Numbered from the stretch's first letter, positions 2,588 through 31,854 are shown. The stretch: DNA of 34,342 bases from an uncultured Candidatus Saccharibacteria bacterium (GCA_964354835.1 CAYHBF010000050.1:1-34342), one strand, 5' to 3'. Notes: generated from the letters alone by a model not told the origin. A program made the numbers and translations.

Positions 2588-3530
2588 CACTTATAGATTA
2601 AGGCTGAAATTAAATGAAATAATTGAACACTATAAAAAAATCCATAAAAGTGGATTAAATTTGGGATACTTCAACCTTAAAGAAAAAGAATATCAAGATT
2701 TTCAAGATGAGTTTCGTTCGACATCAATGTTTGATGAAAAGAAATTAATTGTTTTTAAAAATGCTTCCTTAAATAAAGAATTTCAGGATAAATTTTTAAA
2801 AGAGATTAAAAAATTCATTGAAACGGAGGATATAATTCTCTTTTACGAAGAAAACGAAATATCAAAAAATAAGTTTTTCGACTCTTTAAAAAGATGCGGT
2901 AAATCGCAGGAGTTCAAACCCATTGGAGGAGAAAGATTAAAAATATGGATAAAAAATGAATTTGAAAAATTAGGAGCCAAAATAGAAAATCCAGCTTTAG
3001 AAAATTTAATTAACTTTGTTGGAAATGACCTTTGGCAGATGAAAAACGAAATTGAGAAACTGGCCACTTACAAGTTTAGCAAAAGAGTCGATGAAACTAA
3101 AGCTTCATCTTCACCCTTCGCTAACGCTCGGGTAATTGGAGTAAAGGACATTGAACTTTTAGTTAAGCCAAAAATCGAAACTGATATTTTTAAAACTATA
3201 GATGCCATTGCTCAAAAAAATAAAAAATTAGCCCTAAGGTTGTTGCATAAACATTTAGAAAAAGGAGACAGCCCCCTTTATCTTCTATCAATGATTAATT
3301 TTCAATTCCGAAATTTACTTATGGTAAAATCGCATAAAATAGAACAAGGACTGAACGAAGATTTGGGGATGCATCCTTATGTAATAAGAAAAACAACAGA
3401 GCAAGCAAGAAAATTCACCACTTCTGAATTAAAAAAAATCTACCAGAAAATATTTAAGGTAGATTTAAGTATCAAAACTGGCAAAATAAACCCCGATGTC
3501 GCCCTCGATTTGTTGGTTACTGAGATCTGA
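2562..3530 (+). CDS. holA: DNA polymerase III delta subunit (HolA-like)
   Basis: MIIFLYGPDTYRL start, ~320 aa, clamp-loader delta architecture. It overlaps the fpg stop by 26 nt. It contains an in-frame repeat element at 3088-3138. Confidence 0.7.
   Translation: MIIFLYGPDTYRLRLKLNEIIEHYKKIHKSGLNLGYFNLKEKEYQDFQDEFRSTSMFDEKKLIVFKNASLNKEFQDKFLKEIKKFIETEDIILFYEENEISKNKFFDSLKRCGKSQEFKPIGGERLKIWIKNEFEKLGAKIENPALENLINFVGNDLWQMKNEIEKLATYKFSKRVDETKASSSPFANARVIGVKDIELLVKPKIETDIFKTIDAIAQKNKKLALRLLHKHLEKGDSPLYLLSMINFQFRNLLMVKSHKIEQGLNEDLGMHPYVIRKTTEQARKFTTSELKKIYQKIFKVDLSIKTGKINPDVALDLLVTEI
3088..3138 (+). repeat. Copy of the same element inside holA, in frame
   Basis: 47 of 51 positions are identical to 31804-31854 by hand alignment. 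It translates as DETKASSSPFANARVIG. Confidence 0.85.
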
Positions 3531-3780
3531 TGATTAACCTAGAAATCCTCGATTTTTTTCTGGACGCCGTGTTTTTCTTTATTAATTTAGTTTTAGCCGC
3601 CTTATCTAAGCTTTTATAAATCTGAGGCAATAATTTTTTAGCCTCCTCAATTTTTTTCTGGGAAACTAAAATCTTCACCTCTTTTAAGAGGTTTTTTATT
3701 TTTTGTTTCTTTGGGATATTCCTGATCATTCTTCTCAGATTCTGCCTTAAAGCTTTTTTTGAAGATTTGGTTATAGCCAT
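3517..3780 (-). CDS. rpsT: 30S ribosomal protein bS20
   Basis: 87 aa, very basic, with MAITKSSKKALRQNLRR and a KLIKKNTASRKKSR tail typical of S20. Its 3' end overlaps holA convergently by 14 nt. Confidence 0.85.
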   Translation of the reverse strand: MAITKSSKKALRQNLRRMIRNIPKKQKIKNLLKEVKILVSQKKIEEAKKLLPQIYKSLDKAAKTKLIKKNTASRKKSRISRLIIRSQ

Positions 3781-3797
3781 AATGGTTTTATTTTAAA

Positions 3798-5729
3798 CTA
3801 TTTTAATTTTTTTATCAAGTCGCGAATTTTGGCTGCCCTTTCGAAGTCTAAATTTTTAGCTGCCTCTTTCATTTCTTTTTCTAGGATTTTTTTATCGCGA
3901 ATCATCCAGAATTCAAAAGATATCTCTTTTTCCCTTAAAGAAAACGGCCACTCTCTTATTGGCTTTACAATTTGTTTGGGTGTAATCTTGTGAATTATAT
4001 TATATTTTTTTTGGATTTCTCGTCTTCTCTCCACTTCATTAATTGCTCTTTTCATTGATTCAGTAATTTTATCAGCATATAAAATCACATGCCCTTCTTG
4101 ATGTCTTGCCGCTCTTCCCATCGTTTGAATAAGTGTAGCTTCTGACCTTAAAAATCCTTCCTTGTCGGCATCTAAAATAGCAACCAGGGCTATTTCGGGC
4201 AAGTCCAGTCCCTCTCTTAAAAGGTTTATTCCAACCAGAACGTCATATTTTCCCTCTCTTAAATCTTTTAAAATTTGAGGTCTTTCTAAGGTTTTTACTT
4301 CCGAATGAAGCCATTGGGTTTTAATTCCTTTTTCAGCCAAATAATCAGACAATGCTTCAGCTAATTTTTTAGTTAAAGTTAAAACTAAAATTTTTTGGTT
4401 TTTTCCTATCGCTTTTTTAATTTCTTGAATTAGGTCATTAACTTGGTTTCTAATTGGCCTTATCTCAATGGCTGGCTCTAAAAGGCCAGTTGGTCTAATT
4501 AACTGTTCAACAATAAATTTTTTACCACTTTTTTTCTGTTCATATTCATTGGGTGTTGCTGAAACATAAACAAGCTGCGGAGCTCTCTGAATAAATTCTT
4601 CAAAGGTTAAGGGTCGGTTATCAATTGCCGAAGGGAGTCTAAATCCATATTCAATTAATGTTTTTTTTCTTATTTTGTCTTGGATTGCCATTGCCCTTAT
4701 TTGAGATAAGGTCATATGAGATTCATCAATAAAGACCAAAAAATCGCTTGAAAAATAGTCAATTAAAGTATGGGGGGCCACTCCTGGTTTTCTAAACTCT
4801 AAATGTCTGGAATAATTTTCAACTCCATGACAATAACCCGTCTCCCTTAACATTTCCAAATCGTAGTTCGTTCTTTGTTCAAGCCGTTGGGCTTCTAATA
4901 ATTTTTTTCTCTTTCTTAACTTTCTTAATCTTTCCTCCAGTTCCAGTTTTATATTTTCAATGGCAATTTTTATCTTTTCTTGAGGGGTAACCCAGAAGTG
5001 AGCAGGATAGATTTTAAATTGCTGATTGTAAATTATAAATTTAGGGTTTAAATAATCTTTAGCCGTTGAGATTTTATCAATTTCGTCGCCAAGAAATTCA
5101 ACTCTTAAAATTTCTTTTCCTGTGACTAAATAAATATCAATTATATTTCCTCTAACCCTGAAGTTTCCTGGCTTGGAATCAATGTCATTTCTTTGGTATT
5201 GAAGAGAGGTTAAGTGCGATATAAAATCCCTTCTTTTAATTTTCTGACCCGATTTAATCTCTAAAGAAACTTTTTGATAGTCTTCTGGTGAACCAATATT
5301 GTAAATACAAGAAACCGAAGCTACAACAATTACATCCTTCCTGTTTAATACGTCCTGAGTGGCGGCATGTCTTAATCTGTCAATCTCTTCGTTGATTTTG
5401 GCATCTTTTTCAATATAGGTGTCGGTTTGAGGAATATAGGCCTCTGGTTGATAATAATCATAATAAGAAACAAAATAATGAACTCCGTTTTCTGGAAAGA
5501 ATTCCTTGAATTCCTGATATAATTGGGCAGCCAAGGTTTTGTTGTGGGAAATAATTAAAACTGGTTTCTGAATTTTTTCAATAACTTTTGCCACGGTAAA
5601 GGTTTTTCCAGAGCCCGTCACCCCTAAAAGAACCTGATTTCTAACGCCAGTTTTTAAATTTTTGACTAATTTTTCAATCGCCTGAGGCTGGTCACCAGTT
5701 GGTTTAAAATCTGAAACTATTTCGAACAT
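3798..5729 (-). CDS. uvrB: Excinuclease ABC subunit B
   Basis: Walker A GVTGSGKT, helicase motifs (FIDESH, VSATP), and a C-terminal UVR motif [20 protein letters not shown]. Confidence 0.97.
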
Positions 5730-5788
5730 AATAGATTAATTTTGGCTCAAATTTTCTCTTTTTTCAAGTTTAAGTTAGAATAAAATTG

Positions 5789-6982: not shown

Positions 6983-7431
6983 AAAAATTTGAAATTCTTG
7001 AACATAGAGCCGATTTAAAAATCAGAGCTTTTGGGAAAACGAAAGAAGAACTATTCCAGAATATGTTTTTAGGAATGGGTGAGAGCCAGAAACCGGAAAT
7101 TAAGAGTAAAGAAAAGATAAAAAGAGAAATTGAAATCAAGTCTCTTGACTTCCTCTCTTTATTGGTTGATTTCTTAAGTGAGGTTTTATATTTAAATCAG
7201 GTTAATAAAGAAATTTATTCAGACGTTAATTTCAAAAGGTTTTCCGACACTGAGCTAGAAGCCGAACTTTTAGGTCAAAAAATAGAAAGATTTGGTGAAG
7301 ACATTAAAGCGGTAACCCACCATGATTTAGAGATTAATCAAAGACCTGAGCGAAGCAAAGGGGGGAGAAAAACAAACGTTCTTCGACCAAAGGACGGGAG
7401 TTGGGAGGCGATAGTTTTATTTGATATATGA
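6979..7431 (+). CDS. Archease (RtcB activator/chaperone)
   Basis: FEILEHRADLKIRAFGKTKEELF N-terminus and KAVTHHDL...VLFDI C-terminus. It overlaps both neighbours by 4 nt (ATGA junctions). There is an in-frame GC-rich insert at about 7345-7395. Confidence 0.8.
   Translation: MKKFEILEHRADLKIRAFGKTKEELFQNMFLGMGESQKPEIKSKEKIKREIEIKSLDFLSLLVDFLSEVLYLNQVNKEIYSDVNFKRFSDTELEAELLGQKIERFGEDIKAVTHHDLEINQRPERSKGGRKTNVLRPKDGSWEAIVLFDI
7345..7395 (-). repeat. Diverged, inverted copy of the element inside the archease gene, in frame
   Basis: The reverse complement reads GGTCGAAGAACGTTTGTTTTTCTCCCCCCTTTGCTTCGCTCAGG, against the consensus GTCGATGAA..TTCATCTTCACCCTTCGCTTCGCTCGGG. It encodes RPERSKGGRKTNVLRPKD. 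Confidence 0.6.
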
Positions 7432-8873
7432 TTTCAAAACAAAATTTTAAAAAGATAAACGACTGGCTTTGGGAAATTCCACGAACTTTCAGACAAGATA
7501 TGCGGGTACCGGCGCGCATTTATGTTTCTGAAAAGATGTTAGAAGATGTTTTTCGGGACAGATCTTTAGATCAGTTAATTAATTTGACCTGCTTGCCGGG
7601 TATCCAAAAATACGGCTTGGCTATGCCGGACATTCACGAAGGATACTCTTCGCCAATAGGCGGCGTTGCCGCCATTAGGGTTTCCGACGGTATTATTTCA
7701 CCCGGAATGCAGGGCTACGACGTGAATTGCGGGATGAAATTATTAAAATCGGAATATTCTGAAAAAGATTTAAAGCCATATTTAGAAAATTTAACTACCG
7801 AAATTCAAAAAGAAGTTCCTTCGGGTTTAGGAAAGGGCAGACAAGTGAAGTTGGATATTTCTTTCCTTGATAAAATTTTGGAAGGTGGCGCAAAATATTT
7901 AGTTGAAAAAGGTTACGGCGGAAAAGAAGATGTTGAAAACTGCGAAGCAGGAGGTTGTTTAGAGTATGCCGATGCGACAAATGTTTCTTCTTATGCCAAA
8001 AACCGCGGCAGAGACCAAGTTGGGACTCTCGGCTCGGGCAACCATTTCCTGGAAGTTCAAAAAGTGGAAGAAATTTATGATCAAAAAACAGCTGAAATTT
8101 TTGGTTTATTTGAAAATCAAATCGTAATTATGATTCATACTGGTTCTCGGGGATTAGGCCATCAGGTTGCCACCGATTATATTCGGGAATTTATGGGATT
8201 AATGGGAAAATACAAAATAAATGTGCCCGACAGGGAATTTGCCTGCGTGCCGTTTAATTCTCCGGAAGGGCAAAGAGGTCTATCAGCTTCAGCTTGTGGG
8301 GCAAATTACGCTTGGGCTAATCGCCAAATGATTGCCCATCTTATCAGAAAAGCCTGGAAATCAGTTTTGGGAGAGAAAGCTTCGTCTTTGGTAGTATTGT
8401 ATGATGTTGCCCATAATATTATTAAAAAAGAGAAATATTTAATAGATGGGAAAGAAACTGAAGTGGCGGTTCATCGAAAGGGAGCAACTAGAGCTTTCCC
8501 GCCAGGACATTCAGAAATTCCAGAAAAATATCGCGAGGTTGGACAGCCGGTTTTAATTCCAGGAAGCATGGGGACTGCTTCTTATGTTTTAGTTGGCCAA
8601 AAAGAAGGAGAGGAGGCTTTTTATTCAACCTGTCACGGCGCAGGCAGAACAATGTCGCGGCACGAAGCAATAAGACGCCTCTCTGGACAAGAAGTGGTAA
8701 ATAAATTAAAATCAAAAGGTATTATTGTTAAGTGTTGGTCTCCAAGAGGAATTGCCGAAGAGGCACCAATGGCTTATAAAAACATTGATGAAGTGGTAGA
8801 GGTGGTTCATAATGCTGGCTTATCAAAAAAGGTGGCAAGATTAATTCCCTTAGCAGTAATTAAAGGAGAGTAA
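7428..8873 (+). CDS. rtcB: RNA-splicing ligase RtcB (3'-phosphate/5'-OH RNA ligase)
   Basis: 481 aa with GYDVNCG, GSGNHFLE, HTGSRGLGHQ and CHGAGR (nucleotidylated His context). Confidence 0.95.
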   Translation: MISKQNFKKINDWLWEIPRTFRQDMRVPARIYVSEKMLEDVFRDRSLDQLINLTCLPGIQKYGLAMPDIHEGYSSPIGGVAAIRVSDGIISPGMQGYDVNCGMKLLKSEYSEKDLKPYLENLTTEIQKEVPSGLGKGRQVKLDISFLDKILEGGAKYLVEKGYGGKEDVENCEAGGCLEYADATNVSSYAKNRGRDQVGTLGSGNHFLEVQKVEEIYDQKTAEIFGLFENQIVIMIHTGSRGLGHQVATDYIREFMGLMGKYKINVPDREFACVPFNSPEGQRGLSASACGANYAWANRQMIAHLIRKAWKSVLGEKASSLVVLYDVAHNIIKKEKYLIDGKETEVAVHRKGATRAFPPGHSEIPEKYREVGQPVLIPGSMGTASYVLVGQKEGEEAFYSTCHGAGRTMSRHEAIRRLSGQEVVNKLKSKGIIVKCWSPRGIAEEAPMAYKNIDEVVEVVHNAGLSKKVARLIPLAVIKGE

Positions 8874-8899
8874 AATGTTAGAATTGCTTAAATATCATA

Positions 8900-9064: not shown

Positions 9065-10016
9065 AGGAATTGAAGCTGATTTTCGGGGTAGAGAAACGAT
9101 TGAAAAGTTTTTGAAAAGAAAAAGAGAAAAATATGGGCAATTACCAAAAGAGGAAAAAGAGGAATTTGATTTAGAATCTTTAGGGAACCCTTATTTAGAT
9201 TCAAGAATTTTAAATATCAGTCAAGATGGAGAAATAAAAAGAATTTTAGTTGGAATTGACGTTGAGCCCGCTGAAATTTTATTAGCAAAAGAAATTGGCG
9301 GAATAGATTTAATAATTTCACACCATCCCTTAGGAAAAGCCCTTGCTAATTTGTCTGAAGTAATGGAAATGCAATGCGATATTTTGAACCAGTACGGAGT
9401 ACCTATTAATGTCGCTGAGGGCTTAATGAAAGAAAGAATTTCTGAAGTGGCAAGAGGAATAAATAAAGAAAATCATCAAAGAACAGTAGACGCAGCTAAA
9501 ATTTTAGGATTTAATTTAATATGTCTGCACACCGCCTGTGATAATTTAGCAGCTAAATTTCTAAAGGATAAAATTGAGAATGAAAAATTGGAAAGAATCG
9601 AAAATTTAATGAAATTATTAAAAGAAATTCCAGAATATAAGGAAGCGATAAAATTTGGAGCGGGTCCCAAAATTTTTGTTGGAGACCAAGAAAGAAAATG
9701 TGGCAGAATTGTTTTGACGGAGATGACGGGAGGAACAGAACCTTCTCCTAAAATATATGAAAAAATGGCAATAGCAGGCATTGGAACAATAGTTGGGATG
9801 CATATGGGGGAAGAATCAAAAAAAGAAGCCGAAGCCGCAAATGTTAATGTCGTTATTGCCGGACATATGTCTTCCGATTCTTTGGGGGTAAATCTATTTT
9901 TAGACGAATTAGAAAAAAAGGGGCTCGCAGAGCTTCGCTCTTCTCACGCCTCGGCTGAAGCTTCGGCAATTGAAATTATTCCCTGTTCGGGGTTAATCAG
10001 AGTTAAAAGAATATAA
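9027..10016 (+). CDS. NIF3 (NGG1p-interacting factor 3) family dinuclear-metal protein
   Basis: ILVGIDVEP...DLIISHHP and IAGHMSSD metal-ligand contexts. There is an in-frame GC-rich insert at 9924-9972. Confidence 0.65.
   Translation: MQIKEIYNLAINKGIEADFRGRETIEKFLKRKREKYGQLPKEEKEEFDLESLGNPYLDSRILNISQDGEIKRILVGIDVEPAEILLAKEIGGIDLIISHHPLGKALANLSEVMEMQCDILNQYGVPINVAEGLMKERISEVARGINKENHQRTVDAAKILGFNLICLHTACDNLAAKFLKDKIENEKLERIENLMKLLKEIPEYKEAIKFGAGPKIFVGDQERKCGRIVLTEMTGGTEPSPKIYEKMAIAGIGTIVGMHMGEESKKEAEAANVNVVIAGHMSSDSLGVNLFLDELEKKGLAELRSSHASAEASAIEIIPCSGLIRVKRI
9924..9972 (+). repeat. Diverged copy of the element inside the NIF3-like gene, in frame
   Basis: Hairpin AGAGC-ttc-GCTCT, then TCTCACGCCTCGGCTGAAGCTTCGGCAATTG (compare TTCACCCTTCGCT..CGCTCGGGTAATTG). 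It encodes AELRSSHASAEASA. Confidence 0.6.
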
Positions 10017-11213: not shown

Positions 11214-12365
11214 ATGAAAAAAAATTTAATCACATCAGAATCAGTTTGTCCGGGTCATCCGGATAAAATAGCCGATCAGATTGCCGACGCAATCTTAGAC
11301 GCAATAATAAAAGATGATAAATATTCAAGAGTGGCCTGCGAAGTTTTTATCAGCAAGGGTTACGTAATTGTTGGGGGAGAAATAACCACCAAAACCTGGG
11401 TCAATACGAATAATTTAGTCAGAAAAGTGATTCAAGATATCGGCTACATAAAGCCCGAATACGGTTTTGATTGTCAAGCAGTAGCGGTATTAAACACAAT
11501 TTCTGAACAATCTCCCGATATTGCCAGGGGGATAAGAAAAACGGCGACAGAAAAACAAGGAGCCGGAGACCAAGGTTTTTCAATTGGGTATGCCTGCAAA
11601 GAAACCACCGAACTGATGCCTTTGCCGGTAATGCTGGCTCATAAATTAGTAATGAAGTTAGCTGAAGTCAGAAAAAATAAAATTTTGCCTTATTTAAGGC
11701 CGGATGGAAAATCCCAGGTTACCATTGAATATCAAAATGGGATTGTAAAAAGATTAGATAATGTAGTGATTGCTGCCCAGCATGACCCCGATATCTCTTT
11801 ACCCCAGATTAGAAAGGACATTATTAAAAAGGTAATAATTCCAGTTTGTGGAAAATTTTTAGACAGAAGAACGAAGTTTTATATTAATAATACCGGCCGT
11901 TTTGTTATCGGAGGGCCGGCTTCCGATACCGGAATGACCGGTAGAAAAAATGTTGTTGATGCTTATGGAGGATTAGTTCCAATCGGCGGGGGCAGTTTTT
12001 CTGGCAAGGATCCAACCAAAGTTGACAGGTCGGGCGCCTATATGGCTCGCTATATCGCTAAAAATATTGTGGCTGCAAATATGGCCGAGAAATGTCAGGT
12101 TCAATTGGCCTATGTTATTGGCGGAACCAGGCCCATTGAGATAAACGTAGATACTTTTGGGACGGGGAAAATTTCGGAAACAAAATTAATTAGGATTATC
12201 CCCAAAATTTTTGATTTATCACCAGGTGGAACAATCAGACAATTAAATCTCTTAAGGCCTATTTATCGGAAAACCGCCTGCTATGGACATTTTGGCAGGG
12301 AAGAGCCGGAATTTACCTGGGAGAGAAAAGATAAGGTTAAAGAATTAAAAAGGTTGTTATATTAA
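11214..12365 (+). CDS. metK: S-adenosylmethionine synthetase (bacterial type)
   Basis: [29 protein letters not shown] and [19 protein letters not shown]. Confidence 0.95.
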
Positions 12366-15270: not shown

Positions 15271-16912
15271 CCATATAAGTATTTTCTAATTTATATCCTA
15301 ATCTGCGGAAATAACCTCTTGTTCCAACAGCTGAAATTACGGTAATTTTATTCAATTTGAATTCTTTTTTAGTGATTTTCTCTGCTTCTTTAATTAACTT
15401 TTTCCCCAGTCCTTTATGCTGCGGCGAAATTATCGATTTCGTAAATCGATATATAAAAGAGAGTTGCTGGCCGTAGGTGTGAAGTTCGCGGACAATTGCT
15501 GTATTTTGGGCCTCGCCCGTAGGTCTCACTCGTAAGGTTACGACCGAGGGGCTACGGCCGAGGGAAGTAATCCGAAGACGAAGTAAGCTATAAAGTTTTG
15601 TTCTCTGTTTATTTTCAAAACTTAAAAATATTTCTTTTCCCTCCGAGGCGTCGTAATCTTCTCTAAATAAATAAATTTTTTCTTTTGGATTGTATTTTTC
15701 TCTTATCTCTCGGCATCTAATACAGCGGCATCTCCAGTTTTCTTTCTTCATTTTTTCAAGCAATATCTGACGCAAATTAGAAATTTTTGCAGGGCCTGCA
15801 ATAATACTTTTTGAAGGGATGTCTCTGGTAATCCGTTGGATTCTTACATAATAAGGGATTTTCTTTTTAATTGCTTTGATTAAATTTATTAATTGTGATT
15901 GCGTGTAGGGTTTATATTCTCCCGATTTATATAATTTATAAAGAGGAGCTTCTTTCAAAATGGCGCAGGGATAAATTTTTAATAAATCCGGCTGAAAATC
16001 AGGATTTCTGAATAATTCTTCAAACATTTTTTCGTCTCTTGCTGAGCGCCGCAAAGCGGCGCGAGGCGGAAGAAGAGAATTCGCCTCAGCGACCTTTAAG
16101 CTAGAACCGGGTAAATTTGGCATCATTTGATATAAAACTTTAAACCCCGCCTCTTTTAAAAGTTTGGTAGCAAAAATTGTTTCTTTTACTCCGTGCCCTC
16201 TTAAATTTAACTTTAAAACATCATCATAAATATTTTGAACTCCGAGTTCAACCATTGTCACGCCTAACTCTCTTAATCTGTTAATCTCATTTTTGTTAAT
16301 AAAATCAGGTCTGGTTTCGACAGATAGACCGACAATCCGACAGTTTGCTTTTTCGTTTGACTTTTGAGCTTCTTTCAGGTCTTTTCTTATTGTTTTGTTG
16401 CAAGCGTCAAAACACCTTTTTACAAACCAGGTTTGATATTTTTTAAGATAGTAACTCCAGGTTCCTCCCACTATTCTTAATTCAATTTTGTCTGTAGGGT
16501 GGCCTTCATTTTTCAGCATTTCTATTCTTTTTTGAACCTGTAAATAAGGGTCATAATTTAACTTTTTTGCTCTTTCTACGGCTGGTTCTCCCGAAACATA
16601 ACTTTTTGGGATACCTTTTTCAATTGGGCAGTAGAGACATTTTCCCGGACAGGGATAAGGCTTTGTTAAAACCGAAATATTAACGATACCCGAAAGCGAA
16701 CGAATCGGCCGAGTTTTAAGTAAATTTTCAGCTTTTTCATTATTTTTAATACTTTTATTTTTAAGCAATTCATGATAAGCTTTTAATAGTTCAATATTGC
16801 TCGGACAAGAAATTTTATATTTTTTTGCCACCATTCTCTTAAAGAAAGCCAAATCAGCCTGATTTTTTATTCGGCTCTTAATTAAATCTATAATTATATT
16901 TTTTTTAATCAT
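15257..16912 (-). CDS. elp3: Elp3-family radical SAM + GNAT enzyme (tRNA U34 cm5 modification type)
   Basis: PYPCPGKCLYCP cluster region, a radical SAM core, and a C-terminal GNAT (VRELHTYG...HKGLGKKLI). I chose the ATG at 16912 (MIKKN...) rather than the TTG at 16951 in the ORF track. There are two GC-rich in-frame inserts. Confidence 0.88.
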   Translation of the reverse strand: MIKKNIIIDLIKSRIKNQADLAFFKRMVAKKYKISCPSNIELLKAYHELLKNKSIKNNEKAENLLKTRPIRSLSGIVNISVLTKPYPCPGKCLYCPIEKGIPKSYVSGEPAVERAKKLNYDPYLQVQKRIEMLKNEGHPTDKIELRIVGGTWSYYLKKYQTWFVKRCFDACNKTIRKDLKEAQKSNEKANCRIVGLSVETRPDFINKNEINRLRELGVTMVELGVQNIYDDVLKLNLRGHGVKETIFATKLLKEAGFKVLYQMMPNLPGSSLKVAEANSLLPPRAALRRSARDEKMFEELFRNPDFQPDLLKIYPCAILKEAPLYKLYKSGEYKPYTQSQLINLIKAIKKKIPYYVRIQRITRDIPSKSIIAGPAKISNLRQILLEKMKKENWRCRCIRCREIREKYNPKEKIYLFREDYDASEGKEIFLSFENKQRTKLYSLLRLRITSLGRSPSVVTLRVRPTGEAQNTAIVRELHTYGQQLSFIYRFTKSIISPQHKGLGKKLIKEAEKITKKEFKLNKITVISAVGTRGYFRRLGYKLENTYMVKKI

Positions 16913-24807: not shown

Positions 24808-25003
24808 CCAGTCAGACCAATAAGTCGTAGTATCTTAGTTAAATTTCGTTTTCAAAAATCGAAAGTAAATTAAGTAGAGCGACCGAAGGTCATCCTTCGA
24901 CAAGCTCAGGATGATGCTGAGTTTACCGAAGTATCAAAAGGTCGTTTTTATTTTTAATTATCAGTGTCCCCGAAATTTGCGAAGCAAATTTGGGGCAATA
25001 TCT

Positions 25004-25225: not shown

Positions 25226-25258
25226 GTTGCAACAAACCGGAGAATAAAACCTTTTTTG

Positions 25259-26341
25259 CTATGTTTTCGGGAACCAACTGATTAAATTCCCCCTTATTTC
25301 AAATTTTCCATTAAAAAATTTCTCAATCACCCAAATATTAGTCCTGCAGTGATTAGTAATTTCTGAAACGGTAACCTTAGATTTCCCGGGACCTAAAGCC
25401 ATATAGGGCAAAATTTGGTCGGCTAAATGTTTATCTAAACAAGCCTCGGATTTCTGTTCTCTTAATAATTCAAAAGCAGCTTCTTTTCCAACGTCTTCTG
25501 CTCTTTTGCCTAATTTTCCCAAATTATCGGCTCCGATAACCGTATTTTCAAACTCGGCAATTAAACAAATCTGGCTTCCCGGACATTGGGTAGGATAATA
25601 TTCAATTTTTTCTTCAGTCGGTAGCTTTAATTTCCCTAAAATTTCTTTCACGCCGGCAATTTGCCGCTCGGCCACGTTTTTGTCTTGTAATAACTCTGAA
25701 GCGCCGGAAATAACTAAAATTTTTTGAAGTTCTCCCCGTTCGGTTAAATTAAGCCCCTTTAATTTAAAAGCTTGCCCTCCGGAGCCTTGCTTGTCCACTG
25801 AAACTTTAGCGGAGGCGGGGCGAAGGAGGGGAAATAGCGTTATTTCTACTCCTGCTCCTCCTTCGGGATAATAACCCCTTTTTAAGATATTTATTTCTCC
25901 TTTTGCGCCTAATTTTTCCAGTATTTTTAAGAACACATAATGAAAATAATCAATTGTCGGCGAGAAAAAAGTATCAGTAGCCCCGCCTTCAAAAGTAATT
26001 TTTATCGGGCGAGGAGCAAATAGGGAAGGCAGAATTAAGGTTTGTAAAACCAAAGTAATGCTCCCAGCCGTTGGAATATCTACAAAGACTCGTTCTTTGT
26101 AAATTTCACCAGGGTAAAATTTAATTTCCTGAGATCCTAATTCGTCTCCCTCCAAGCTTCCGTTGCAAAGCCGGGCCAGGGCTTGAATTCCCGCAAGATG
26201 TTGCGGCATTAAACCTGGTTTTTCTCTGCCTTTTCTGATGTTATAAACAAGACAGGGGTTTTTAGTAACCGCCGATAAAGCGCAGGCTGTTCTCAATATT
26301 TGGCCGCCGGCTTCGCCTATTGAACCGTCAATTTCAATCAT
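25259..26341 (-). CDS. rtcA: RNA 3'-terminal phosphate cyclase
   Basis: [30 protein letters not shown], a GGATD-type region and [10 protein letters not shown]. There is an in-frame GC-rich segment at about 25775-25833. Confidence 0.9.
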
Positions 26342-26352
26342 CGAAATAAATT

Positions 26353-26471
26353 TTATTGAGATGGCAGATGAATTTCTAATTCATCAATCATCGAAATAAA
26401 GTTCGCTGAACTTCGTTCATCTCTCGCCCTTCGCTTTACTTGGGCAGATGAATTTCTAATTCATTGATCAT
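26353..26471 (-). promoter_or_regulatory. rtcA leader with two tandem mini-ORFs created by nested duplications
   Basis: uORF1 at 26471-26436 encodes MINELEIHLPK*. uORF2 at 26391-26353 encodes [13 protein letters not shown] 17-nt exact repeat TTTATTTCGATGATTGA (minus strand) precedes and overlaps both uORF2 and the rtcA start. Confidence 0.5.
26398..26444 (+). repeat. Copy of the element in the rtcA upstream region
   Basis: AAGTTCGCTGAACTTCGTTCATCTCTCGCCCTTCGCTTTACTTGGG aligns with the consensus. It is flanked by a 28/30-nt direct repeat at 26363-26392 and 26443-26472. Confidence 0.65.
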
Positions 26472-27050: not shown

Positions 27051-27344
27051 TTAAAATATTAAATCTTGAAAAAGAAAAAAGAATTACAAAATCTTATCTT
27101 GGCTTGATGTGTGAGAGAAAAAGGAGGGTATAATGTTCATTTATATTGGTGGCGTTTTAGATTCGATAAAAACTGCCATATACGCGTAAATTACTCTCTG
27201 TATAATATTAACAAATATTGATATCTTTTTTGTTTATTATAAAATATAAAAAAGCAACATCAAAAGGTCGATTTTTAAACATATTCTAAAATATAAAACC
27301 ATTTTTAGAAACCTTTTTGTCTATAAAAATTAAATTCCTTCTTA

Positions 27345-27373
27345 TTGACAAAAAAAGATAGGAATGCTAAACT
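27345..27373 (+). promoter_or_regulatory. Candidate promoter of the DUF2000 gene
   Basis: TTGACA (27345-27350), 17-nt spacer, TAAACT (27368-27373). AGGAGG sits 9 nt upstream of the ATG at 27481. Confidence 0.5.
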
Positions 27374-27480
27374 GTTATTAGCTGTTTTCAAAGTAGTTTT
27401 TTGTTCTACGGAAACAAAGAAAAGAGAAAGAAATAAGCCTAGAACAAGAAAAATTATTAAGAGAAGGAGGATCTTATCAT

Positions 27481-27906
27481 ATGGAAAAATACCCCCACAA
27501 ATTAGTTGCAGTATTGAATGGGAACATAGGAGGAGTAGGTATTATCATGAATGCATTAGCCCATATGGCTCTTGGTCTGGGCGCAAGCGTCGAAGATAAG
27601 TCTGGATTTAGATTCGTGGATTATACTGATGGAGATGGCAATAGCCATGCGAATATTTCTGAATTGCCGTTCATAATTCTTAAAACAAAAAATCCCGAGG
27701 AGTTAAAAGAGTTAAGAAAAGTGCTCATCAGTAGAAATGTTCGTTTTGTTGACTTTCCAGGTTTCATAAACTCTATCGGGACATTCGAGAATCCAGAAAA
27801 AAGTAGGCAATTTAAAGAAGAAGGTATAGAATACTATGGGATTGTTATGTACGGCGATTGGGATGTTGTCACAGAGTTGACAAGAAAATTCTCCCTTTGG
27901 AGATAG
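27481..27906 (+). CDS. DUF2000-like protein (PTH2-like fold family)
   Basis: 141 aa. KLVAVLNGNIG..GIIMNALAHMALGLG...ELPFIILK...YYGIVMYGDWDVVTELTRKFSLW matches my recollection of the DUF2000 pattern. It has a strong SD. Confidence 0.55.
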   Translation: MEKYPHKLVAVLNGNIGGVGIIMNALAHMALGLGASVEDKSGFRFVDYTDGDGNSHANISELPFIILKTKNPEELKELRKVLISRNVRFVDFPGFINSIGTFENPEKSRQFKEEGIEYYGIVMYGDWDVVTELTRKFSLWR

Positions 27907-27951
27907 ATAAGGCTGCAACTTGCCCCACGAAAAATTGATCCCCCCAGTTGG

Positions 27952-29034
27952 TTATACTCGGGGGATTTTCTTTAATGTCTTAAAAGTCTCACAAAGTAAA
28001 ACTTCATTTCCAATAAAATAAATGATTGGTCTATTTTTTTTAATAATAAAATTATACTTTACAATACCAAAGAAGGCATCAATGAGCGAGTTGCTTTCGA
28101 TATCACTAGAATAGTGTAGTTCACCAACAATCCAAGCCGCATTTTCAACTATAGATGGGTATTTAACTAAAAATCTTTCCGCACCCTCGATATCAATTTT
28201 AAGACCATATCCTTCACCGCTTATAATCCTATCAAATGGAAGTATAGAAACTTGTCTGGCGTGTGACTGTTTTACATACAGTGATGGAAGTGCGTGGGAT
28301 TGGTTGCTAAAGAATAAAGTTGTCTGTTTTTCGGTATCACCAACTGCTGCATTGATTATTTTCGCGTTTATATTATTGTTATCTAAATTTTGTTTGAGTA
28401 TCTTAAGGTTCTCTTCCATTGGCTCCACGCATATAATTTCTGCACATGGGTTAAGTGAGTGGAAGTATATTGCTGAAAGACCAATATTCGCACCGAGATC
28501 GTAAATACATTTAACAGGATTATTGAAATAATAAACTTCTTCTGCAAATATTTCCCACAGTAAACCAAGTGATACGAGATCGGCAGGGTAAGCAATATTG
28601 ATAAATTGATTGTGTATAAAAAGCTGAATTTTTCTTATTTTTTTAATATTAATAGGGTTGTTATTGATCGAAAGCCCACGCAAATGACGGATAGAAGCTT
28701 TCATATAATCATTAAACAATATCAAACGACTGTGGAAATCAAAGGTAATTATTTTGTATCCGTGTAATATCTTTTTGAGACTATATTCCTTCGCTATTTT
28801 TTTTGCGTATTTGCGAAGTTTTTTAATATCAAGACCAGTTATATTGGCTATGAGTGAAGTCAAATTAAAAATTCTGTTATTACACACCAAATCTTTTGGC
28901 AGTGTTCCTGAACGCATTTCTAATAGAGGGCCCGGAATTCCCGCTACACACCAATATCTATCTTCTACGGAAAGTCTATTAAGAAGGTGATTGAGTGTCG
29001 ACTTCCAATCTCGTAATGGACAATTATTATTCAT
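27952..29034 (-). CDS. FkbM-family SAM-dependent methyltransferase with ~170-aa N-terminal extension
   Basis: IYDLGANIGLSAIYF, ICVEPMEENLKILKQNL, AAVGD and LKIDIEGAE. It overlaps the upstream radical SAM gene by 8 nt. Confidence 0.8.
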   Translation of the reverse strand: MNNNCPLRDWKSTLNHLLNRLSVEDRYWCVAGIPGPLLEMRSGTLPKDLVCNNRIFNLTSLIANITGLDIKKLRKYAKKIAKEYSLKKILHGYKIITFDFHSRLILFNDYMKASIRHLRGLSINNNPINIKKIRKIQLFIHNQFINIAYPADLVSLGLLWEIFAEEVYYFNNPVKCIYDLGANIGLSAIYFHSLNPCAEIICVEPMEENLKILKQNLDNNNINAKIINAAVGDTEKQTTLFFSNQSHALPSLYVKQSHARQVSILPFDRIISGEGYGLKIDIEGAERFLVKYPSIVENAAWIVGELHYSSDIESNSLIDAFFGIVKYNFIIKKNRPIIYFIGNEVLLCETFKTLKKIPRV

Positions 29035-30145
29035 TTTTCGGAAGATTTTTTTGATTACCTACCAATAAAGTACAATATGGATCGCATGCGAAAATAGATT
29101 TATTATTAACTAATGCCTTTGAACGACAGCCACCAAGACATAATTGAAAAAAATTACAAGAAGCACAAGGTTCTTTGATATTGTCTTCAAGTGCCCGTGC
29201 CGTAGAAAAAGGTGGTTCTTGAATAATCTCAGTAAGAGTTTTATCAGATAGATTTGCCACAGACGGCATTTCGGGACACAAAGCAACACTGCGATTCACC
29301 TTTATAGCTGCCCCAGCTAAAAAAATTCCGCAAGAATGCGCAGGAGTTGAACTGTATGGTATAGACCATTTAATATTAAATTCTTTTTCATCCATTTCTT
29401 TTAAAGTTCGCCTAAGCCAACGAGCTTGATTATAATCCACTGCGATATCTGATGTAGCTTTACCAATTTCTGTAGCTAATTCAACATTGGGGAAAAAATT
29501 GTTTTTCCGAGCGAACCGCCAAATTTCAGGTATCTCATAAAGATTAATCTTCGTGGCACAGGGGCCGATACCAAGCCTTGCATAACGTCCATTTAGCTTT
29601 CCGAAACCAACTTCCAAAAGAGCATCTAAGCTGGAACGAATCTTTTTATAAGTACCTTGTCCACTAAGTTTATCCTGAGTTTTTTCTTTTCCATCTAATT
29701 TAATCATTATCGATGCTCCAAGATTAAACAGACGCTTTGCAATGTCTAAACTTATTAACGTACCATTTGTAAAGATAACTGGTATCACTTTTTTACGACT
29801 AACGTATTCAATAAATGGCCAAAAATGCTTATATAAAAGAGGTTCTCCACCTCCGAGGTAAACTATTGATTGCAAACCTAAATTAATTCCTTGGTCGATA
29901 ATATCACAGGCATCTTTAAGCAACATTTCTTTTAGTTTTTCTCGTCGTAAATAAGAATAACAATATATGCATTTCAAATTACAGCTGTCGTTAGTCTCCA
30001 TCCGTAAGCAGAGGATTTGACCCGCATCACGAGCTGCATAAATTTCCTGCAATGAATAGCTATAGCCCTTCAAAAGTACACAACTATCTCCTCCTGGATA
30101 ATCATTTCTATCGGTTTTTAATTCTTTTATTTTTATATTTCTCAT
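29027..30145 (-). CDS. Radical SAM enzyme with C-terminal SPASM domain
   Basis: CNLKCIYC (nt 29960-29983, checked by hand), GGGEPLL, and the SPASM signature CASCNFFQLCLGGC (Cx2Cx5Cx3C) plus upstream Cys residues. Confidence 0.9.
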   Translation of the reverse strand: MRNIKIKELKTDRNDYPGGDSCVLLKGYSYSLQEIYAARDAGQILCLRMETNDSCNLKCIYCYSYLRREKLKEMLLKDACDIIDQGINLGLQSIVYLGGGEPLLYKHFWPFIEYVSRKKVIPVIFTNGTLISLDIAKRLFNLGASIMIKLDGKEKTQDKLSGQGTYKKIRSSLDALLEVGFGKLNGRYARLGIGPCATKINLYEIPEIWRFARKNNFFPNVELATEIGKATSDIAVDYNQARWLRRTLKEMDEKEFNIKWSIPYSSTPAHSCGIFLAGAAIKVNRSVALCPEMPSVANLSDKTLTEIIQEPPFSTARALEDNIKEPCASCNFFQLCLGGCRSKALVNNKSIFACDPYCTLLVGNQKNLPKNE

Positions 30146-30163
30146 TTCCTTTTTAATATTTTA

Positions 30164-31195
30164 TTAAATATTGGGTCTATACGGACAATAGCCATCAAAT
30201 TTTGTTCTATTAAGAAATGGATATTTTACCAATATTTTACTTTCTAGTTCTTTTATAGAAGCTTCTTTCACATTGCCAATTATATCTTCATTACCTACAC
30301 AAGGACTTACTCTTCCATCTCCATATATTTGTAGAAACTCTATACATGGCATTGTTGTTGATCCATTCCATATAGGATGAAAGAATCCATATTCTTCATC
30401 AACTTTTTTTACTATTTCTTTCAATTTAGCCCTATTTTTCTTATTAAGCATTAATGATTTGTCAAAATCTTCTTTTCCACTTCTTCCAGAGGGAAGATAA
30501 GTAGTAAAAATTATCCATAAATTATTATTTCTACAATAGCGTAGCGTTTTTTCGACTTCGTCGATATTTCTTTTTGTAACAACCATATCAAAACCTAATC
30601 TTGTAGTTCCATCTTCTTGAACTTTGTTAAACCCATATTCCATAAGAAATTCTATTGCTTCGTTTCTTTGTTTAAAATATTTACCAGTCTTATCTCCAAC
30701 GACCCAATTTTGATATTCCTTATTAAATAAACTATCGCATTTTGGGCATATACTTGCACCAGATTCATAAACCCTTTTAACAAAATCTTTATCTCTCATT
30801 TTTATTGCGGCATCCGTATATATGGACTGATGAATTCCTTTTGAGGAAGTATATTCAATTATTTCAAAAAAATCTTTATCAATTGTCGGCTCTCCTTCTC
30901 CAACAAAATCAATTGCATAGGTGTTCAAATCAACTAATTGGTCTATTACGTTTTTAATCTCATTTAACGTTAAAGTTTTTCTATTTTTATCTGTAAAACA
31001 ATGGAAACAATTATGTGGACACGCTTCTGTCATCGCGCGAAAATTTACGACAGGAAGCCTTGAAGGATTACGATAATCTCCCTCTGTCATATCCCATCCC
31101 TTAATTACTGCTCCTATGTCTATAGGAACGTATCCAAGTCCGATATACTTTTTTTTACTTAATTCCATTAATATTGGTTTAGATTTCTTCTTCAT
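30164..31195 (-). CDS. Radical SAM enzyme (MoaA/twitch-like C-terminus)
   Basis: CPHNCFHC (nt 30998-31021, checked by hand), GEGEPT, and C-terminal Cys residues (MPCIEF...VSPCVG...GYCPY). Confidence 0.85.
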   Translation of the reverse strand: MKKKSKPILMELSKKKYIGLGYVPIDIGAVIKGWDMTEGDYRNPSRLPVVNFRAMTEACPHNCFHCFTDKNRKTLTLNEIKNVIDQLVDLNTYAIDFVGEGEPTIDKDFFEIIEYTSSKGIHQSIYTDAAIKMRDKDFVKRVYESGASICPKCDSLFNKEYQNWVVGDKTGKYFKQRNEAIEFLMEYGFNKVQEDGTTRLGFDMVVTKRNIDEVEKTLRYCRNNNLWIIFTTYLPSGRSGKEDFDKSLMLNKKNRAKLKEIVKKVDEEYGFFHPIWNGSTTMPCIEFLQIYGDGRVSPCVGNEDIIGNVKEASIKELESKILVKYPFLNRTKFDGYCPYRPNI

Positions 31196-31240
31196 TTAAC
31201 GCTAATTATGCCGAAAGCCAAATATTTTAGCTTATAAATT

Positions 31241-31269
31241 TATTTAAACAATTATCTTATATTTGTCAA
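31241..31269 (-). promoter_or_regulatory. Candidate promoter of the radical SAM operon
   Basis: On the minus strand: TTGACA (31269-31264), 17-nt spacer, TAAATA (31246-31241). Confidence 0.5.
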
Positions 31270-31647
31270 TTAATTGAACCGAAACTCTACAGCATTTTCA
31301 GAACTGAAAAAACTGTCAACAATTCTGAAAAGGTACCATCTAATCGATGGAACAGTGACGAAGGCTAATATTTTGAAAACCTCTTTATCTGTTTTTTCTT
31401 CCGATGGACAATTTTATCTTACCCATTTATTCCAAGAAAAAGGAGCAGATCTAGGGCTATGTCCTTATTTCTGCATCTTTTTCAAAAAAGAATCAGAAAC
31501 TACGTTGAGTCCATATTCACGGGTAATTGCTCGAGCTATAAAAGAAAAGGGGCTAAATGGATGCACTTTGCGTGGAGACTGGTGTCTCTGGCAACTAAAT
31601 TTAGAGAAGGAAAGAAGATAATTAAAAAAATCATAATATCTAACTAT

Positions 31648-31681
31648 CCCTTTGTGAATCATTTCACGGAGGGCTTTTTTT
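31648..31681 (+). terminator. Intrinsic terminator ending an orphan plus-strand transcript
   Basis: CCCTTTGTGAA-tcat-TTCACGGAGGG followed by CTTTTTTT. Confidence 0.6.
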
Positions 31682-31755
31682 AATATTGCTAAGATGATAA
31701 ATTTTTTATTTTTGTCGGGAATTAGTTTACAAAAAATTTACAAATTTAGTTTAAA

Positions 31756-31854
31756 GTCGATGAAGCTATCGCTTCATCTTCACCCTTCGCTTCGCTCGGG
31801 AAGGCGATGAAACTAAAGTTTCATCTTCACCCGTCGCTACCGCTCGGGTAATTG
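31756..31854 (+). repeat. Two tandem copies of the GC-rich hairpin element (reference copies of the family)
   Basis: Copy 1 is 31756-31800, with hairpin GATGAAGC-tatc-GCTTCATC then TTCACCCTTCGCTTCGCTCGGG. Copy 2 is 31804-31854, with GATGAAAC-taaa-GTTTCATC then TTCACCCGTCGCTACCGCTCGGGTAATTG. Confidence 0.85.

Follow-up and report, generated by a model that had tools for sequence, protein, structure and literature searches.

Short two-hairpin DNA repeats, probably selfish, that lie in frame within unrelated genes of CPR bacteria

The mobile GC clusters and double-hairpin elements of fungal mitochondria are GC-rich palindromic units of 30-60 nt that are polymorphic between strains of hosts with an AT-rich mitochondrial genome. 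These units lie both between genes and in frame within coding sequence, and the usual account of their spread is recombination or conversion. In Rickettsia, RPEs are repeated palindromic DNA found in frame in unrelated housekeeping genes as well as between genes, according to the passages of PMC10969869 and PMC3733652 that recount Ogata et al. (2000). PMC3733652 gives most RPE families a size of about 100-150 bp and describes the short RPE-4 and RPE-6 as single palindromes tagged with CGTC. REPs are single imperfect palindromes of 20-40 bp that carry a fixed tag (GTAG or CGTC) and lie mainly outside genes; some, as in Opitutus terrae, are intragenic, notably in replication and repair genes, where they encode 20-30 residues (PMC3733652). 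IS200/IS605 elements have subterminal hairpins and insert 3' of a fixed pentanucleotide (TTGAT for ISDra2), and their excision restores the gene (PMC2806898, PMC3201880). ERIC, BOX, Correia, and RU-1/2/3 repeats have terminal inverted repeats and target duplications, span 100-200 bp, and are genic by exception (PMC10969869, PMC2759123).

The window, i.e., the whole 34,342-nt stretch of DNA that was analyzed, contains copies of a repeat designated family A. We consider it probable (roughly 80%) that family A comprises short, selfish DNA repeats that are non-coding and occur specifically in certain CPR (Patescibacteria/Parcubacteria-type) genomes. The features discussed below are as follows.

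3087..3134, + strand: near-consensus family A copy with a 48-nt unit, in frame within holA (DNA polymerase III delta), encoding VDETKASSSPFANARV
7344..7388, - strand: decayed family A copy, 45 nt, in reverse orientation and in frame near the archease C-terminus (RPERSKGGRKTNVLR)
9924..9968, + strand: decayed family A copy of 45 nt, in frame within a NIF3-like gene (LAELRSSHASAEASA)
15515..15562, - strand: palindromic 48-nt in-frame insert in Elp3 (LGRSPSVVTLRVRPTGEA), separate from family A
16040..16093, - strand: 54-nt in-frame insert in Elp3 (VAEANSLLPPRAALRRSA), probably an extended variant of family A
24878..24930, + strand: family C member in the leader of a zinc-finger (CxxC) gene
25775..25833, - strand: GC-rich in-frame insert in RtcA, separate from family A
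26366..26385, + strand: hairpin-only relative (GATGAATTTCTAATTCATC)
26402..26446, + strand: decayed family A copy of 45 nt in the intergenic DNA upstream of rtcA
31756..31802, + strand: near-consensus family A copy, 47 nt, a frame-breaking length; unit 1 of an intergenic tandem pair
31803..31850, + strand: near-consensus family A copy, 48-nt unit; unit 2 of the tandem pair

The family A unit has two parts. Hairpin 1 reads G(T/G)C-GATGAAnn-loop-nnTTCATC and is followed by a second, weaker stem-loop, TTC-ACCC-TTCGCT..CGCTC-GGGT-A, in which a palindromic extension can add to the inner stem. The unit length is 45, 48, 54, or 57 nt; units start with GTCGA and end with GGGTA, and a CGTC tag was absent from both ends. 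Minimum-free-energy folds contain both hairpins. Among family A copies the pairing of hairpin 1 is 93.6%, and five of its eight pairs have changes on both sides (for example, UA 70 and AU 28 at one pair; GC 40, CG 37, AU 9, and UA 6 at another). The covariation score of the whole structure was 0.26, compared with 0.086 for shuffled copies (0 of 500 reached 0.26) and at most 0.051 in a slid-partner control. This covariation points to selection on a recognized structure.

A covariance model built from 47 family A copies was used to scan the window with filters off. The initial annotation had described one element in holA and as a tandem pair, and this held: the model matched at 3087-3138 in holA (E=1e-19) and at 31756-31802 (E=3e-15) and 31803-31854 (E=6e-19) in the pair. 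Positions 3086-3145 and 31802-31861 are 90% identical across 60 nt, and 31755-31814 is the neighboring tandem unit. The pattern TTCACCCTTCGCTNNCGCTCGGG, with up to three mismatches, occurs twice in the window versus 0 times in 100 shuffles. The diverged copies proposed earlier inverted in archease (7339-7387, - strand, E=6e-8) and upstream of rtcA (26402-26450, E=3e-6; z=8.4 versus shuffles) were also recovered. The copy proposed in the NIF3-like gene was weak under the model (E=7.6) but gave z=6.9 against the 45-nt consensus (0 of 2000 shuffles).

Exact filled and empty alleles in close relatives support the view that the copies in holA, archease, NIF3, and upstream of rtcA, as well as both Elp3 patches, are lineage-specific insertions, as had been supposed. 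Across relatives, holA is empty, filled, or doubled: the site is empty in P0006/L076, whose ortholog is 79% identical, and relative L073 carries two tandem copies. In the AlphaFold model for holA, pLDDT is below 50 at residues 175-188. The archease site is filled in the window, in L080, and in L074, which has a better-preserved orthologous copy (E=1e-14), and is empty in L070, than which the window is longer by exactly 45 nt. PDB archeases run uninterrupted through this site. The NIF3 insert, exactly 45 nt (15 aa), is missing from most orthologs, and alleles at least 92% identical exist with and without the 15 residues, those lacking it being 92-96% identical. The syntenic strain L082 lacks both the tandem-pair locus (31756-31850) and the 80-nt segment in which the copy upstream of rtcA sits. 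That insertion is accompanied by duplications of a native GATGAA hairpin (25-29 nt) and of the rtcA start region (16 nt), which a simple cut-and-paste model fails to account for. The alignment places the hairpin-only relative (model E about 0.1-0.2) twice in the window, the second time at 26447-26464, and once in L082. At empty sites the insert equals the unit length exactly, with zero additional duplicated bases. Family A sites are gained and lost seamlessly between close strains, and copies can double into in-frame tandems. Seamless loss could also occur via allele replacement by recombination.

The two Elp3 patches differ in their relationship to family A. The one first placed at 16041-16092 proved to be an exact 54-nt insert, with an inner stem of GCGCCGC-TTT-GCGGCGC, that corresponds to an exact 54-nt gap in syntenic relative L080 and an exact 18-aa gap relative to PDB 6ia8. 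Five of 120 orthologs carry the insert, with GDETKFH still legible in one. From its similarity to the 54-nt extended variant (z=5.0, 0 of 2000 shuffles) it is probably an extended family A variant. The patch outlined at 15508-15566 is likewise an exact in-frame insert that varies between strains, with a 48-nt gap in L080, but it has no detectable family A similarity (z=0.3), and no further copies were found across the sampled CPR loci. The patch at 25775-25833 in RtcA is also a genuine strain-variable in-frame insert, of about 22 residues more than PDB 4o89, and it too has no detectable similarity to family A (z=-1.1). L082 RtcA has an additional nested palindromic insert of 39 nt at this site. 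The 11-mer CTAAAGTTTCA common to rtcA and the element is, by our arithmetic, no more than chance would give.

Two other candidates were dropped. The possible copy in DUF763 (10593-10632) is ancestral sequence, with RRYHW-LSS conserved throughout the protein family and only six residues (RHTRGK) lineage specific. The presumed partial copy in the CxxC leader (24878-24925; z=1.2 against family A) matches instead a second repeat family, family C. The family C core is CCTTCGAyAArCTCAGGnTGATGCTGAG, an exact 28-nt pattern with 0 occurrences expected by chance; relatives occur in L070 (47 nt inserted at a point corresponding to window position ~6970), inside uvrB in L074, and in L032. The GC-rich patches represent at least two distinct repeat families, and probably several.

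The repeats were expected to be a genome-scale phenomenon, and the covariance model bore this out, clade-wide, with 102 matches at E<1e-4 within 479 kb of CPR loci. A genome scan by 18-mer yielded 69 loci, about 48 of which had the full family A context in CPR MAGs (Nealsonbacteria, Paceibacter normanii, Parcubacteria, and others); by our arithmetic ~17 chance matches were expected, and matches outside CPR genomes were chance matches only. In other loci the genes that carry copies include those for ribosomal protein L25, a release factor, and a P-type ATPase, and tandem arrays have a period of 45-48 nt. The density in the sampled CPR loci is roughly one repeat per 5-20 kb, which extrapolates to on the order of a hundred per genome.

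Copies within genes are under coding constraint. Matches inside ORFs of at least 120 aa (52 of 102; 32 forward and 20 reverse) had lengths that are multiples of three in 46 cases, versus 26 of the 50 elsewhere (Fisher p=7e-5). Forty of 49 distinct copies are 45, 48, 54, or 57 nt, and the remaining nine all lie outside long ORFs. Two to three of the six frames of family A are free of stop codons, and genic copies occupy those frames. In decayed genic copies the in-frame TGA has changed to GGA (window) or TGG (L074), and in NIF3 and archease the hairpin is mostly gone while the frame is kept. The stop-free frames and lengths in threes suggest that genic copies are read through and translated as 15-19 extra residues. 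The encoded residues are rich in Ser, Ala, Pro, and charged residues and are predicted to be disordered.

Flank conservation is one sided. No consistent target duplication was found; among 35 solitary copies, the best match of k>=3 accounted for 17%. Conservation lies in the 3' flank, GTA-A/T-T-T-G/A-A, with the A at 93%, giving the motif A|WTTGA on the element strand. Its core, GA at positions four and five with T-rich sequence before, pre-exists in three empty sites (holA, AAG|ATTGAC; archease, TTTTA|TTTGATG; NIF3, GAA|ATAGAA), and the Elp3 empty site, AAA|AGAGAT, fits partially. With just four resolved empty sites, the support for the target motif comes mainly from flank statistics. Positions -3 to +1 of solitary copies are G 31%, T 48%, A 72%, and G 100%, and tandem junctions are always tagged, GGGTA(G/A).

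The lack of terminal inverted repeats and target duplication, together with the one-sided motif, suggests single-strand, HUH-type mobilization. We tentatively propose that an HUH/Y1-type transposase of the IS200/IS605-RAYT kind may act in trans to mobilize family A units in single-stranded form. Such an enzyme would recognize the hairpins, insert units beside a short flank motif (5'-A|WTTGA when read along the element strand; on the opposite strand, 3' of TCAAW), and remove them precisely. Neither the window nor two element-dense loci yielded a Y1/HUH or other transposase gene, and tblastn with a provisional IS200 TnpA query found no match in ~0.6 Mb of loci at ~8 kb each. That result would also fit spread and contraction with no dedicated transposase, as in the fungal mitochondrial elements. 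This could happen through replication slippage or template switching promoted by the hairpins, unequal recombination that yields tandems, and gene conversion, either between copies or onto sequences like the element 5' end (GATGAA). The tandem arrays, the local duplications upstream of rtcA, and downstream flanks that resemble the element start (TTGATGAA at the archease empty site, AGAGATGAA at that of Elp3) are consistent with such routes. However, slippage or conversion does not readily account for nearly identical units at dozens of unrelated positions across many genomes, the NIF3 and holA junctions have no microhomology to drive seamless deletion, and the hairpin covariation implies selection on a recognized structure; spread by these routes is unlikely. 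A broader proposal is that multiple tiny palindromic families (family A, family C, a YNPPTTS..ERAP type, a PAFAKATADK type, and others) are a major, so far unrecognized source of lineage-specific loop insertions in Patescibacteria proteins, guided by hairpins without an element-encoded transposase or via an unknown CPR enzyme, with targets that resemble their own arm GATGAA; taken jointly, these statements are doubtful.

It is improbable that family A is a classical MITE, i.e., a deletion derivative of a DDE-transposase IS with terminal inverted repeats and a target duplication such as the TA of IS630/Tc1-like elements. Family A is short, abundant, and strain polymorphic, and in 34% of the 35 solitary copies TA lies both before the element and at its GGGTA end. 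However, this rate is the expectation from base frequencies (T 48% at -2 times A 72% at -1), terminal inverted repeats are absent (the reverse-complemented 3' end matches the 5' end at just 3 of 12 positions), and filled sites lack the duplicated bases. It is also very improbable that the element, instead of being selfish, serves as a functional RNA or regulatory DNA site (small RNA, attenuator, terminator, or protein-binding site) or as a peptide module under selection. The conserved, covarying hairpin, the leader or intergenic copies (31756-31850, 26402-26446), and a 14-codon ATG...TAA mini-frame read directly in consensus copies would suit such a function. However, no ribosome-binding site accompanies the mini-frame, intergenic copies of variant length break it, no U/T tract follows the hairpin, and an Rfam search gave no match. 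Furthermore, half of the copies are in ORFs, in both orientations and several frames that yield unrelated peptides, nucleotide sequence is better conserved than the encoded peptide, and near-identical strains hold both filled and empty alleles of one gene. It is scarcely credible that genic copies are tiny intron-like elements removed after transcription, with the exons rejoined, e.g., by the RtcB/archease ligase, and host proteins unaltered. RtcB, archease, and RtcA are all encoded in the window, which is a matter of proximity only. Removal would free both length and stop codons, yet genic copies are constrained in both, their in-frame TGA codons are mutated, and the decayed NIF3 and archease copies remain in frame with the hairpin mostly lost. 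Copies in both orientations would not present a single RNA structure for removal.

CPR bacteria have genomes among the smallest and most streamlined known. Many family A copies nevertheless sit inside essential genes, such as holA, L25, release factor, Elp3, and archease. For annotation and phylogenomics, the inserts introduce spurious indels, low-complexity segments, and length heterogeneity into marker proteins; for protein evolution, they offer a ready supply of disordered loops at recurrent hot spots. How RPE-like elements move has been a question since 2000. In family A the units are tiny and quantized in length, public metagenomes contain alleles that are exactly filled, empty, or doubled, and a one-sided target motif is visible, which makes the mechanism open to direct testing.

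The initial annotation knew of no account of such repeats in CPR bacteria, and literature searches for one found nothing. Family A resembles RPEs and REPs in behavior but fits the definition of neither. The parallel drawn earlier with RPEs holds for in-frame insertion in many unrelated ORFs and for presence between the genes of a small, AT-rich genome; hosts tolerate both as additional stretches of peptide, and neither has been assigned a mobilizing enzyme. The parallel does not extend to RPE length or the CGTC tag: compared with RPEs as described, family A is 45-57 nt, bipartite, without CGTC, quantized in length, and found in in-frame tandems, and it occurs in a different phylum. Like REP/BIME-RAYT systems, family A comprises short hairpin repeats, single or arrayed, that lack terminal inverted repeats and target duplications, and a TAG/GTAG-like motif often precedes hairpin 1. 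In contrast to REPs, its tag is statistical only, it has two hairpins, about half of its copies are genic, and no RAYT was found near copies in the window and ~0.6 Mb of loci. Family A shares with IS200/IS605 elements and PATEs (IS608, ISDra2) subterminal hairpins at both ends, the absence of inverted repeats and duplications, a one-sided 4-5-nt target motif (3' of TCAAW on the reverse strand), and seamless excision, seen as alleles at least 92% identical that differ by exactly 45 nt. However, no tnpA or tnpB was found, and family A is far shorter than any described IS end pair. In-frame bacterial MITEs are also small, non-autonomous repeats that occasionally give translational fusions inside ORFs, but family A has neither terminal inverted repeats nor target duplication, and for it genic insertion is the norm. 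The GC clusters of fungal mitochondria, although organellar and unrelated in sequence, are like family A in size, palindromes, and sites.

The repeat in the window is genuine: positions 3086-3145 and 31802-31861 are 90% identical, and 31755-31814 is the adjoining tandem partner. Its tail motif, TTCACCCTTCGCTNNCGCTCGGG, matches the window twice at ≤3 mismatches, where shuffled sequences are expected to yield no match. The window (34,342 nt) is AT-rich (~35% GC), and its genes, including fpg, holA, rpsT, uvrB, a Mur ligase gene, archease, rtcB, a NIF3-like gene, a DUF763 gene, metK, Elp3, and rtcA among others, are typical of a Parcubacteria-type CPR bacterium. An exact-pattern scan with TTCATCTTCACCCNTCGCT over 185,579 species genomes (596 Gb) returned 69 loci; for an 18-base pattern and this much sequence, our own arithmetic gives ~17 matches by chance. 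Of the 69, ~21 were lone 18-mers in unrelated bacteria and archaea. The whole element was visible in the other ~48, which came from Candidatus Nealsonbacteria (including the complete genome CP179888.1), a single-cell genome of Candidatus Paceibacter normanii, Parcubacteria and Patescibacteria MAGs, and MAGs labelled Saccharibacteria.

From these loci 49 distinct full copies of the repeat, designated family A, were extracted, and 47 were aligned to build a covariance model. Run on 391 kb of CPR loci, the model gave 112 matches at E<0.01, and on 479 kb it gave 102 matches at E<1e-4. The initial annotation had proposed such a scan and had likened the repeat to the Rickettsia palindromic elements (RPEs) as a genome-scale phenomenon in CPR bacteria, a reading that the 102 matches support. 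In the window and in five loci from other genomes that were chosen via proteins rather than via the element (L070, L073, L074, L080, and L082), there were 0 to 7 copies per 13 to 34 kb. The sole Rfam match of the window at gathering score was a tRNA (17639-17712); the tandem locus gave six matches at E≤10, all far under threshold, and no Rfam entry for family A was found. Three 18-mer matches in viral contigs (16.6 bits) included no genuine copy. No account of family A was found in the literature on CPR/Patescibacteria repeats within our coverage, which most subscription journals lie outside. A perfect copy also lies at the extreme end (32-82) of a 54%-GC contig labelled Desulfobacterales, L047, which may reflect misbinning, a chimeric contig end, or transfer.

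Individual inserts in the window are as follows (E, covariance model; z, alignment against shuffled sequence):

3087-3134, 48 nt: family A copy in holA; site empty, filled, or doubled among orthologs
7344-7388, reverse, 45 nt: family A copy in archease; E=6e-8
9924-9968, 45 nt: family A copy in the NIF3-like gene; z=6.9 against the 45-nt consensus
15515-15562, 48 nt: Elp3 insert, in frame, palindromic, strain-variable; missing from L080
16040-16093, 54 nt: Elp3 insert, probable family A member; exact gap against L080 and against PDB 6ia8
24878-24930: copy of a second repeat family (family C) in the leader of the CxxC (zinc-finger) gene; core CCTTCGAyAArCTCAGGnTGATGCTGAG, nested palindrome
25775-25833: rtcA insert, in frame, palindromic, strain-variable
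26402-26446: family A copy upstream of rtcA; E=3e-6

Of the 10 sites listed in the initial annotation (counting the tandem pair as one), six belong or probably belong to family A, three hold inserts of another kind, and one was wrong. The last, at 10593-10632 in DUF763, was ruled out by ortholog alignment, in which the whole protein family conserves RRYHW-LSS and lineage-specific residues number only six. The CxxC leader copy belongs to family C. Likeness to family A was not detected in the Elp3 insert at 15515-15562 (z=0.3) or the rtcA insert (z=-1.1), which are genuine strain-variable inserts nonetheless; CTAAAGTTTCA, common to the rtcA patch and the family A element, was taken as chance. 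GC content alone is not diagnostic of family A, because ~30 patches (45-nt windows) have more than 56% GC, most of which represent ordinary conserved coding DNA.

The family A consensus, G(T/G)C-GATGAA-nn-loop-nn-TTCATC-TTC-ACCC-TTCGCT-(1-11 nt)-CGCTC-GGGT-A, folds as a single strand into two stem-loops. Hairpin 1 was 93.6% paired in the 102-copy alignment, and both sides changed in five of eight pairs. For example, columns 6/40 were UA in 70 copies and AU in 28, and columns 10/36 were GC in 40, CG in 37, AU in 9, and UA in 6. The covariation score of the whole structure was 0.26, versus 0.086 for column shuffles (0 of 500 at or over the observed value) and at most 0.051 for slid partners. Hairpin 1 is strongly supported by this covariation, and the family A hairpin is under selection. 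Hairpin 2 (ACCC...GGGT, with inner CG/CG) is near-invariant; longer versions of its spacer are always palindromic and lengthen the inner stem, as in GGC-TTC-GCC, TCCCGC-TCT-GCGGGA, and the GCGCCGC-TTT-GCGGCGC of the window Elp3 copy. Tandem periods and filled-versus-empty comparisons gave unit lengths of 45 nt (short loop), 48 nt (long loop), and 54 or 57 nt (extended stem 2). Only 3 of 12 positions matched as terminal inverted repeats, and no consistent target duplication was found at the copies; a TA duplication was rejected.

Close strains differ in the presence of individual copies. Among 32 close orthologs of HolA, the site between K-x-K and I-x-V-K-D was empty in ortholog P0006 (79% identity) and five others, and the window protein and eight more had a family A copy there. 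The site held two tandem units in P0002 (L073), a reverse-orientation copy (RQRGEGGKENEVLF) in P0040, and unrelated inserts in yet other orthologs. In an AlphaFold model, the insert (residues 175-188, pLDDT<50) separates a long helix from the domain that follows. In archease, the gene of the syntenic strain L070 is shorter by exactly 45 nt. Because L074 and L080 have orthologous copies with shared derived changes, the simplest account is seamless loss of the L070 copy or acquisition of an empty allele. Solved archease structures have no residues at the insert position. The 15 residues of the NIF3 insert are missing from nearly all orthologs at ~80% identity and from three alleles at 92 to 96% identity. 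The predicted filled-site peptides read KR-VDETKASSSPFANARV-IG and, in NIF3, G-LAELRSSHASAEASA-IE, the insert of which resembles the consensus peptide VDELRSSSPFADARV. The Elp3 insert at 16040-16093, present in 5 of 120 orthologs and lineage-specific as had been suggested, is a probable member (z=5.0 against the 54-nt variant); one ortholog reads GDETKFHLPP, the hairpin with a one-base frame change. The copy upstream of rtcA lies within an 80-nt segment missing from L082. These filled and empty alleles and missing segments bear out the annotated holA, archease, NIF3, and rtcA-upstream copies. Close strains show gain, loss, and doubling of copies, the inserted length is exactly one unit, and genic copies occur in both orientations.

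This 80-nt insertion relative to L082, within window 26337-26471, also holds GATGAATTTCTAATTCAT, a native hairpin, as a second copy, and it repeats 16 nt of the rtcA start-codon region (CAATCATCGAAATAAA). The tandem pair lies inside a 4.9-kb segment, window 27059-31939, for which L082 has ~186 nt instead (9682-9867). This segment contains DUF2000, an FkbM-type methyltransferase, two radical-SAM genes, ORF 31274-31621, and the tandem pair, ~85 nt from its right edge. At that site L082 has a partial copy in reverse orientation together with a duplication of AAGAGATTTATCTCTT, a short AT-rich hairpin that recurs in CPR loci L004, L009, L018, L037, L039, L074, L080, and L082 and sometimes adjoins family A tails (e.g., L082 9820-9883). 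RtcB is 481 aa in the window (7428-8873) versus 902 aa with an intein (Intein_splicing Pfam match) in L070 (14970-17678), an intein presence/absence polymorphism between close strains. The first of two adjoining OMP-decarboxylase/HUMPS-family paralogs (12375-13199 and 13204-13860) is 56 residues longer, with the extra segment after residue ~55, and has a weak covariance-model match (E=1.2, 12503-12525). Two tandem response-regulator genes (919-1050 and 1370-1501; 71% identity over 132 nt) are ordinary paralogs.

The lengths and reading frames of family A are constrained within genes. The 45-, 48-, 54-, and 57-nt classes include 40 of the 49 distinct copies, and the nine exceptions (44, 46, or 47 nt) all lie where no long frame exists, the open frames there being 27 to 72 codons. 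On the element strand the sole open frame is GTC GAT GAA..., the other two being closed by TGA (cGATGAa) and TAA (GGGTAA); the reverse strand has one open frame, and a second opens upon mutation of the TGA when no TAG is in the spacer. Just over half of the matches (52 of 102; 32 forward, 20 reverse) fall within ORFs of 120 aa or more. Lengths were divisible by three in 46 of these 52 versus 26 of the 50 elsewhere (Fisher p=7e-5 with tandem-truncated matches corrected; p=0.004 uncorrected). The in-frame TGA of decayed archease copies has become GGA in the window and TGG in L074. From these length and stop-codon constraints, we infer that the ribosome reads through genic copies. The frame and stop-codon constraints led us to reject intron-like removal by RtcB/archease. 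A 14-codon mini-ORF from the ATG in GATGAA to the TAA in GGGTAA was also rejected: it has no ribosome-binding site, intergenic variants disrupt its frame, and other ORFs contain most of the copies.

Family C is also polymorphic, as L070 has a 47-nt insertion (14510-14556) at window position ~6970; ATTAA stands on both flanks of this copy, which alters the Mur ligase C-terminus. Another copy lies inside uvrB in L074 (4872-4888). The loci compared contained no second copy of the rtcA or 15515-15562 Elp3 insert and supported no assignment of either to a repeat family. In L082 the RtcA insert (8510-8551) has a further nested, near-palindromic, in-frame insertion of 39 nt with the core CCTTCGCCGAAGTAGCTTCGGCTACGAAGG. 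Orthologs from different lineages share recurrent insertion hot spots. At those in holA and Elp3, other lineages have the recurrent peptides YNPPTTS...ERAP, APAFAKATADK/KPAFVKASAGK, and SEGGKE/GEGGKENEVLF, of which the last is a family A copy in reverse frame. These peptides suggest that several further families of in-frame repeats exist. Relative to the window, L070 has additional GC-rich segments in fpg (9613-9642, 27 nt) and uvrB (11971-11986, 16 nt; 12212-12236, 25 nt, the latter common to L073). The RPE-like reading can be extended: at least two families, and probably several, act alike in these genomes.

Family A copies have a non-random flank on one side. After ...CTCGG, the successive positions are G (97%), T (93%), A (74%), A/T (85%), T (53%), T (67%), G/A (95%), and A (93%), and position -1 is A in 72%. 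The flank core, a T-rich stretch followed by GA at positions four and five, was already present in three of four resolved empty sites (slash at the junction), holA AAG/ATTGAC, archease TTTTA/TTTGATG, and NIF3 GAA/ATAGAA; the Elp3 site, AAA/AGAGAT, fits in part. The motif is therefore a target preference, external to the element. Subterminal hairpins are a feature of IS200/IS605 and REP/RAYT systems, in which insertion takes place on one strand, 3' of a fixed sequence of four or five nucleotides; the ISDra2 target is TTGAT, and excision in these systems is seamless (PMC2806898, PMC3201880, PMC3733652). We infer that the properties of family A are the signature of IS200/IS605 single-strand "peel-and-paste" transposition and of REP/RAYT systems.

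We give a probability of about 0.35 to mobilization in trans by an IS200/IS605- or RAYT-like HUH enzyme. Such an enzyme would move family A as a single strand and insert it 3' of a TCAAW target on the reverse strand, and the candidate cleavage points would be ...TCAAW/ and ...TTCATCGAC/. However, no candidate gene was found: Pfam detected no transposase in any of the larger window ORFs or in two element-dense loci, and neither did tblastn across ~0.6 Mb of loci with an approximate IS200 TnpA query. The rtcA-upstream insertion, which comes with a duplicated native GATGAA hairpin and rtcA start region, also argues against an HUH enzyme. Spread by slippage, template switching, or conversion, independent of any transposase, seems unlikely to us, and the remaining likelihood is split among other options.

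Family A differs from RPEs, REPs, and MITEs in defining features. Unlike RPEs it is not 100 to 150 bp and has no CGTC tag; unlike REPs it is neither a single 20- to 40-bp palindrome nor mainly extragenic, and its GTAG tag seems not to be fixed; and unlike MITEs it has no inverted repeats or duplication. Family A is a further form of a known type of element and involves no new principle. Its value lies in the taxon, in its density in essential genes of minimal genomes, and in unusually clean material for work on mechanism. Intragenic REPs are known in Opitutus terrae and Rickettsia, and family A behaves functionally like these and like RPEs (PMC10969869, PMC3733652). Structurally, it has the features of a nonautonomous IS200/IS605-derived element and may depend on a cognate transposase.
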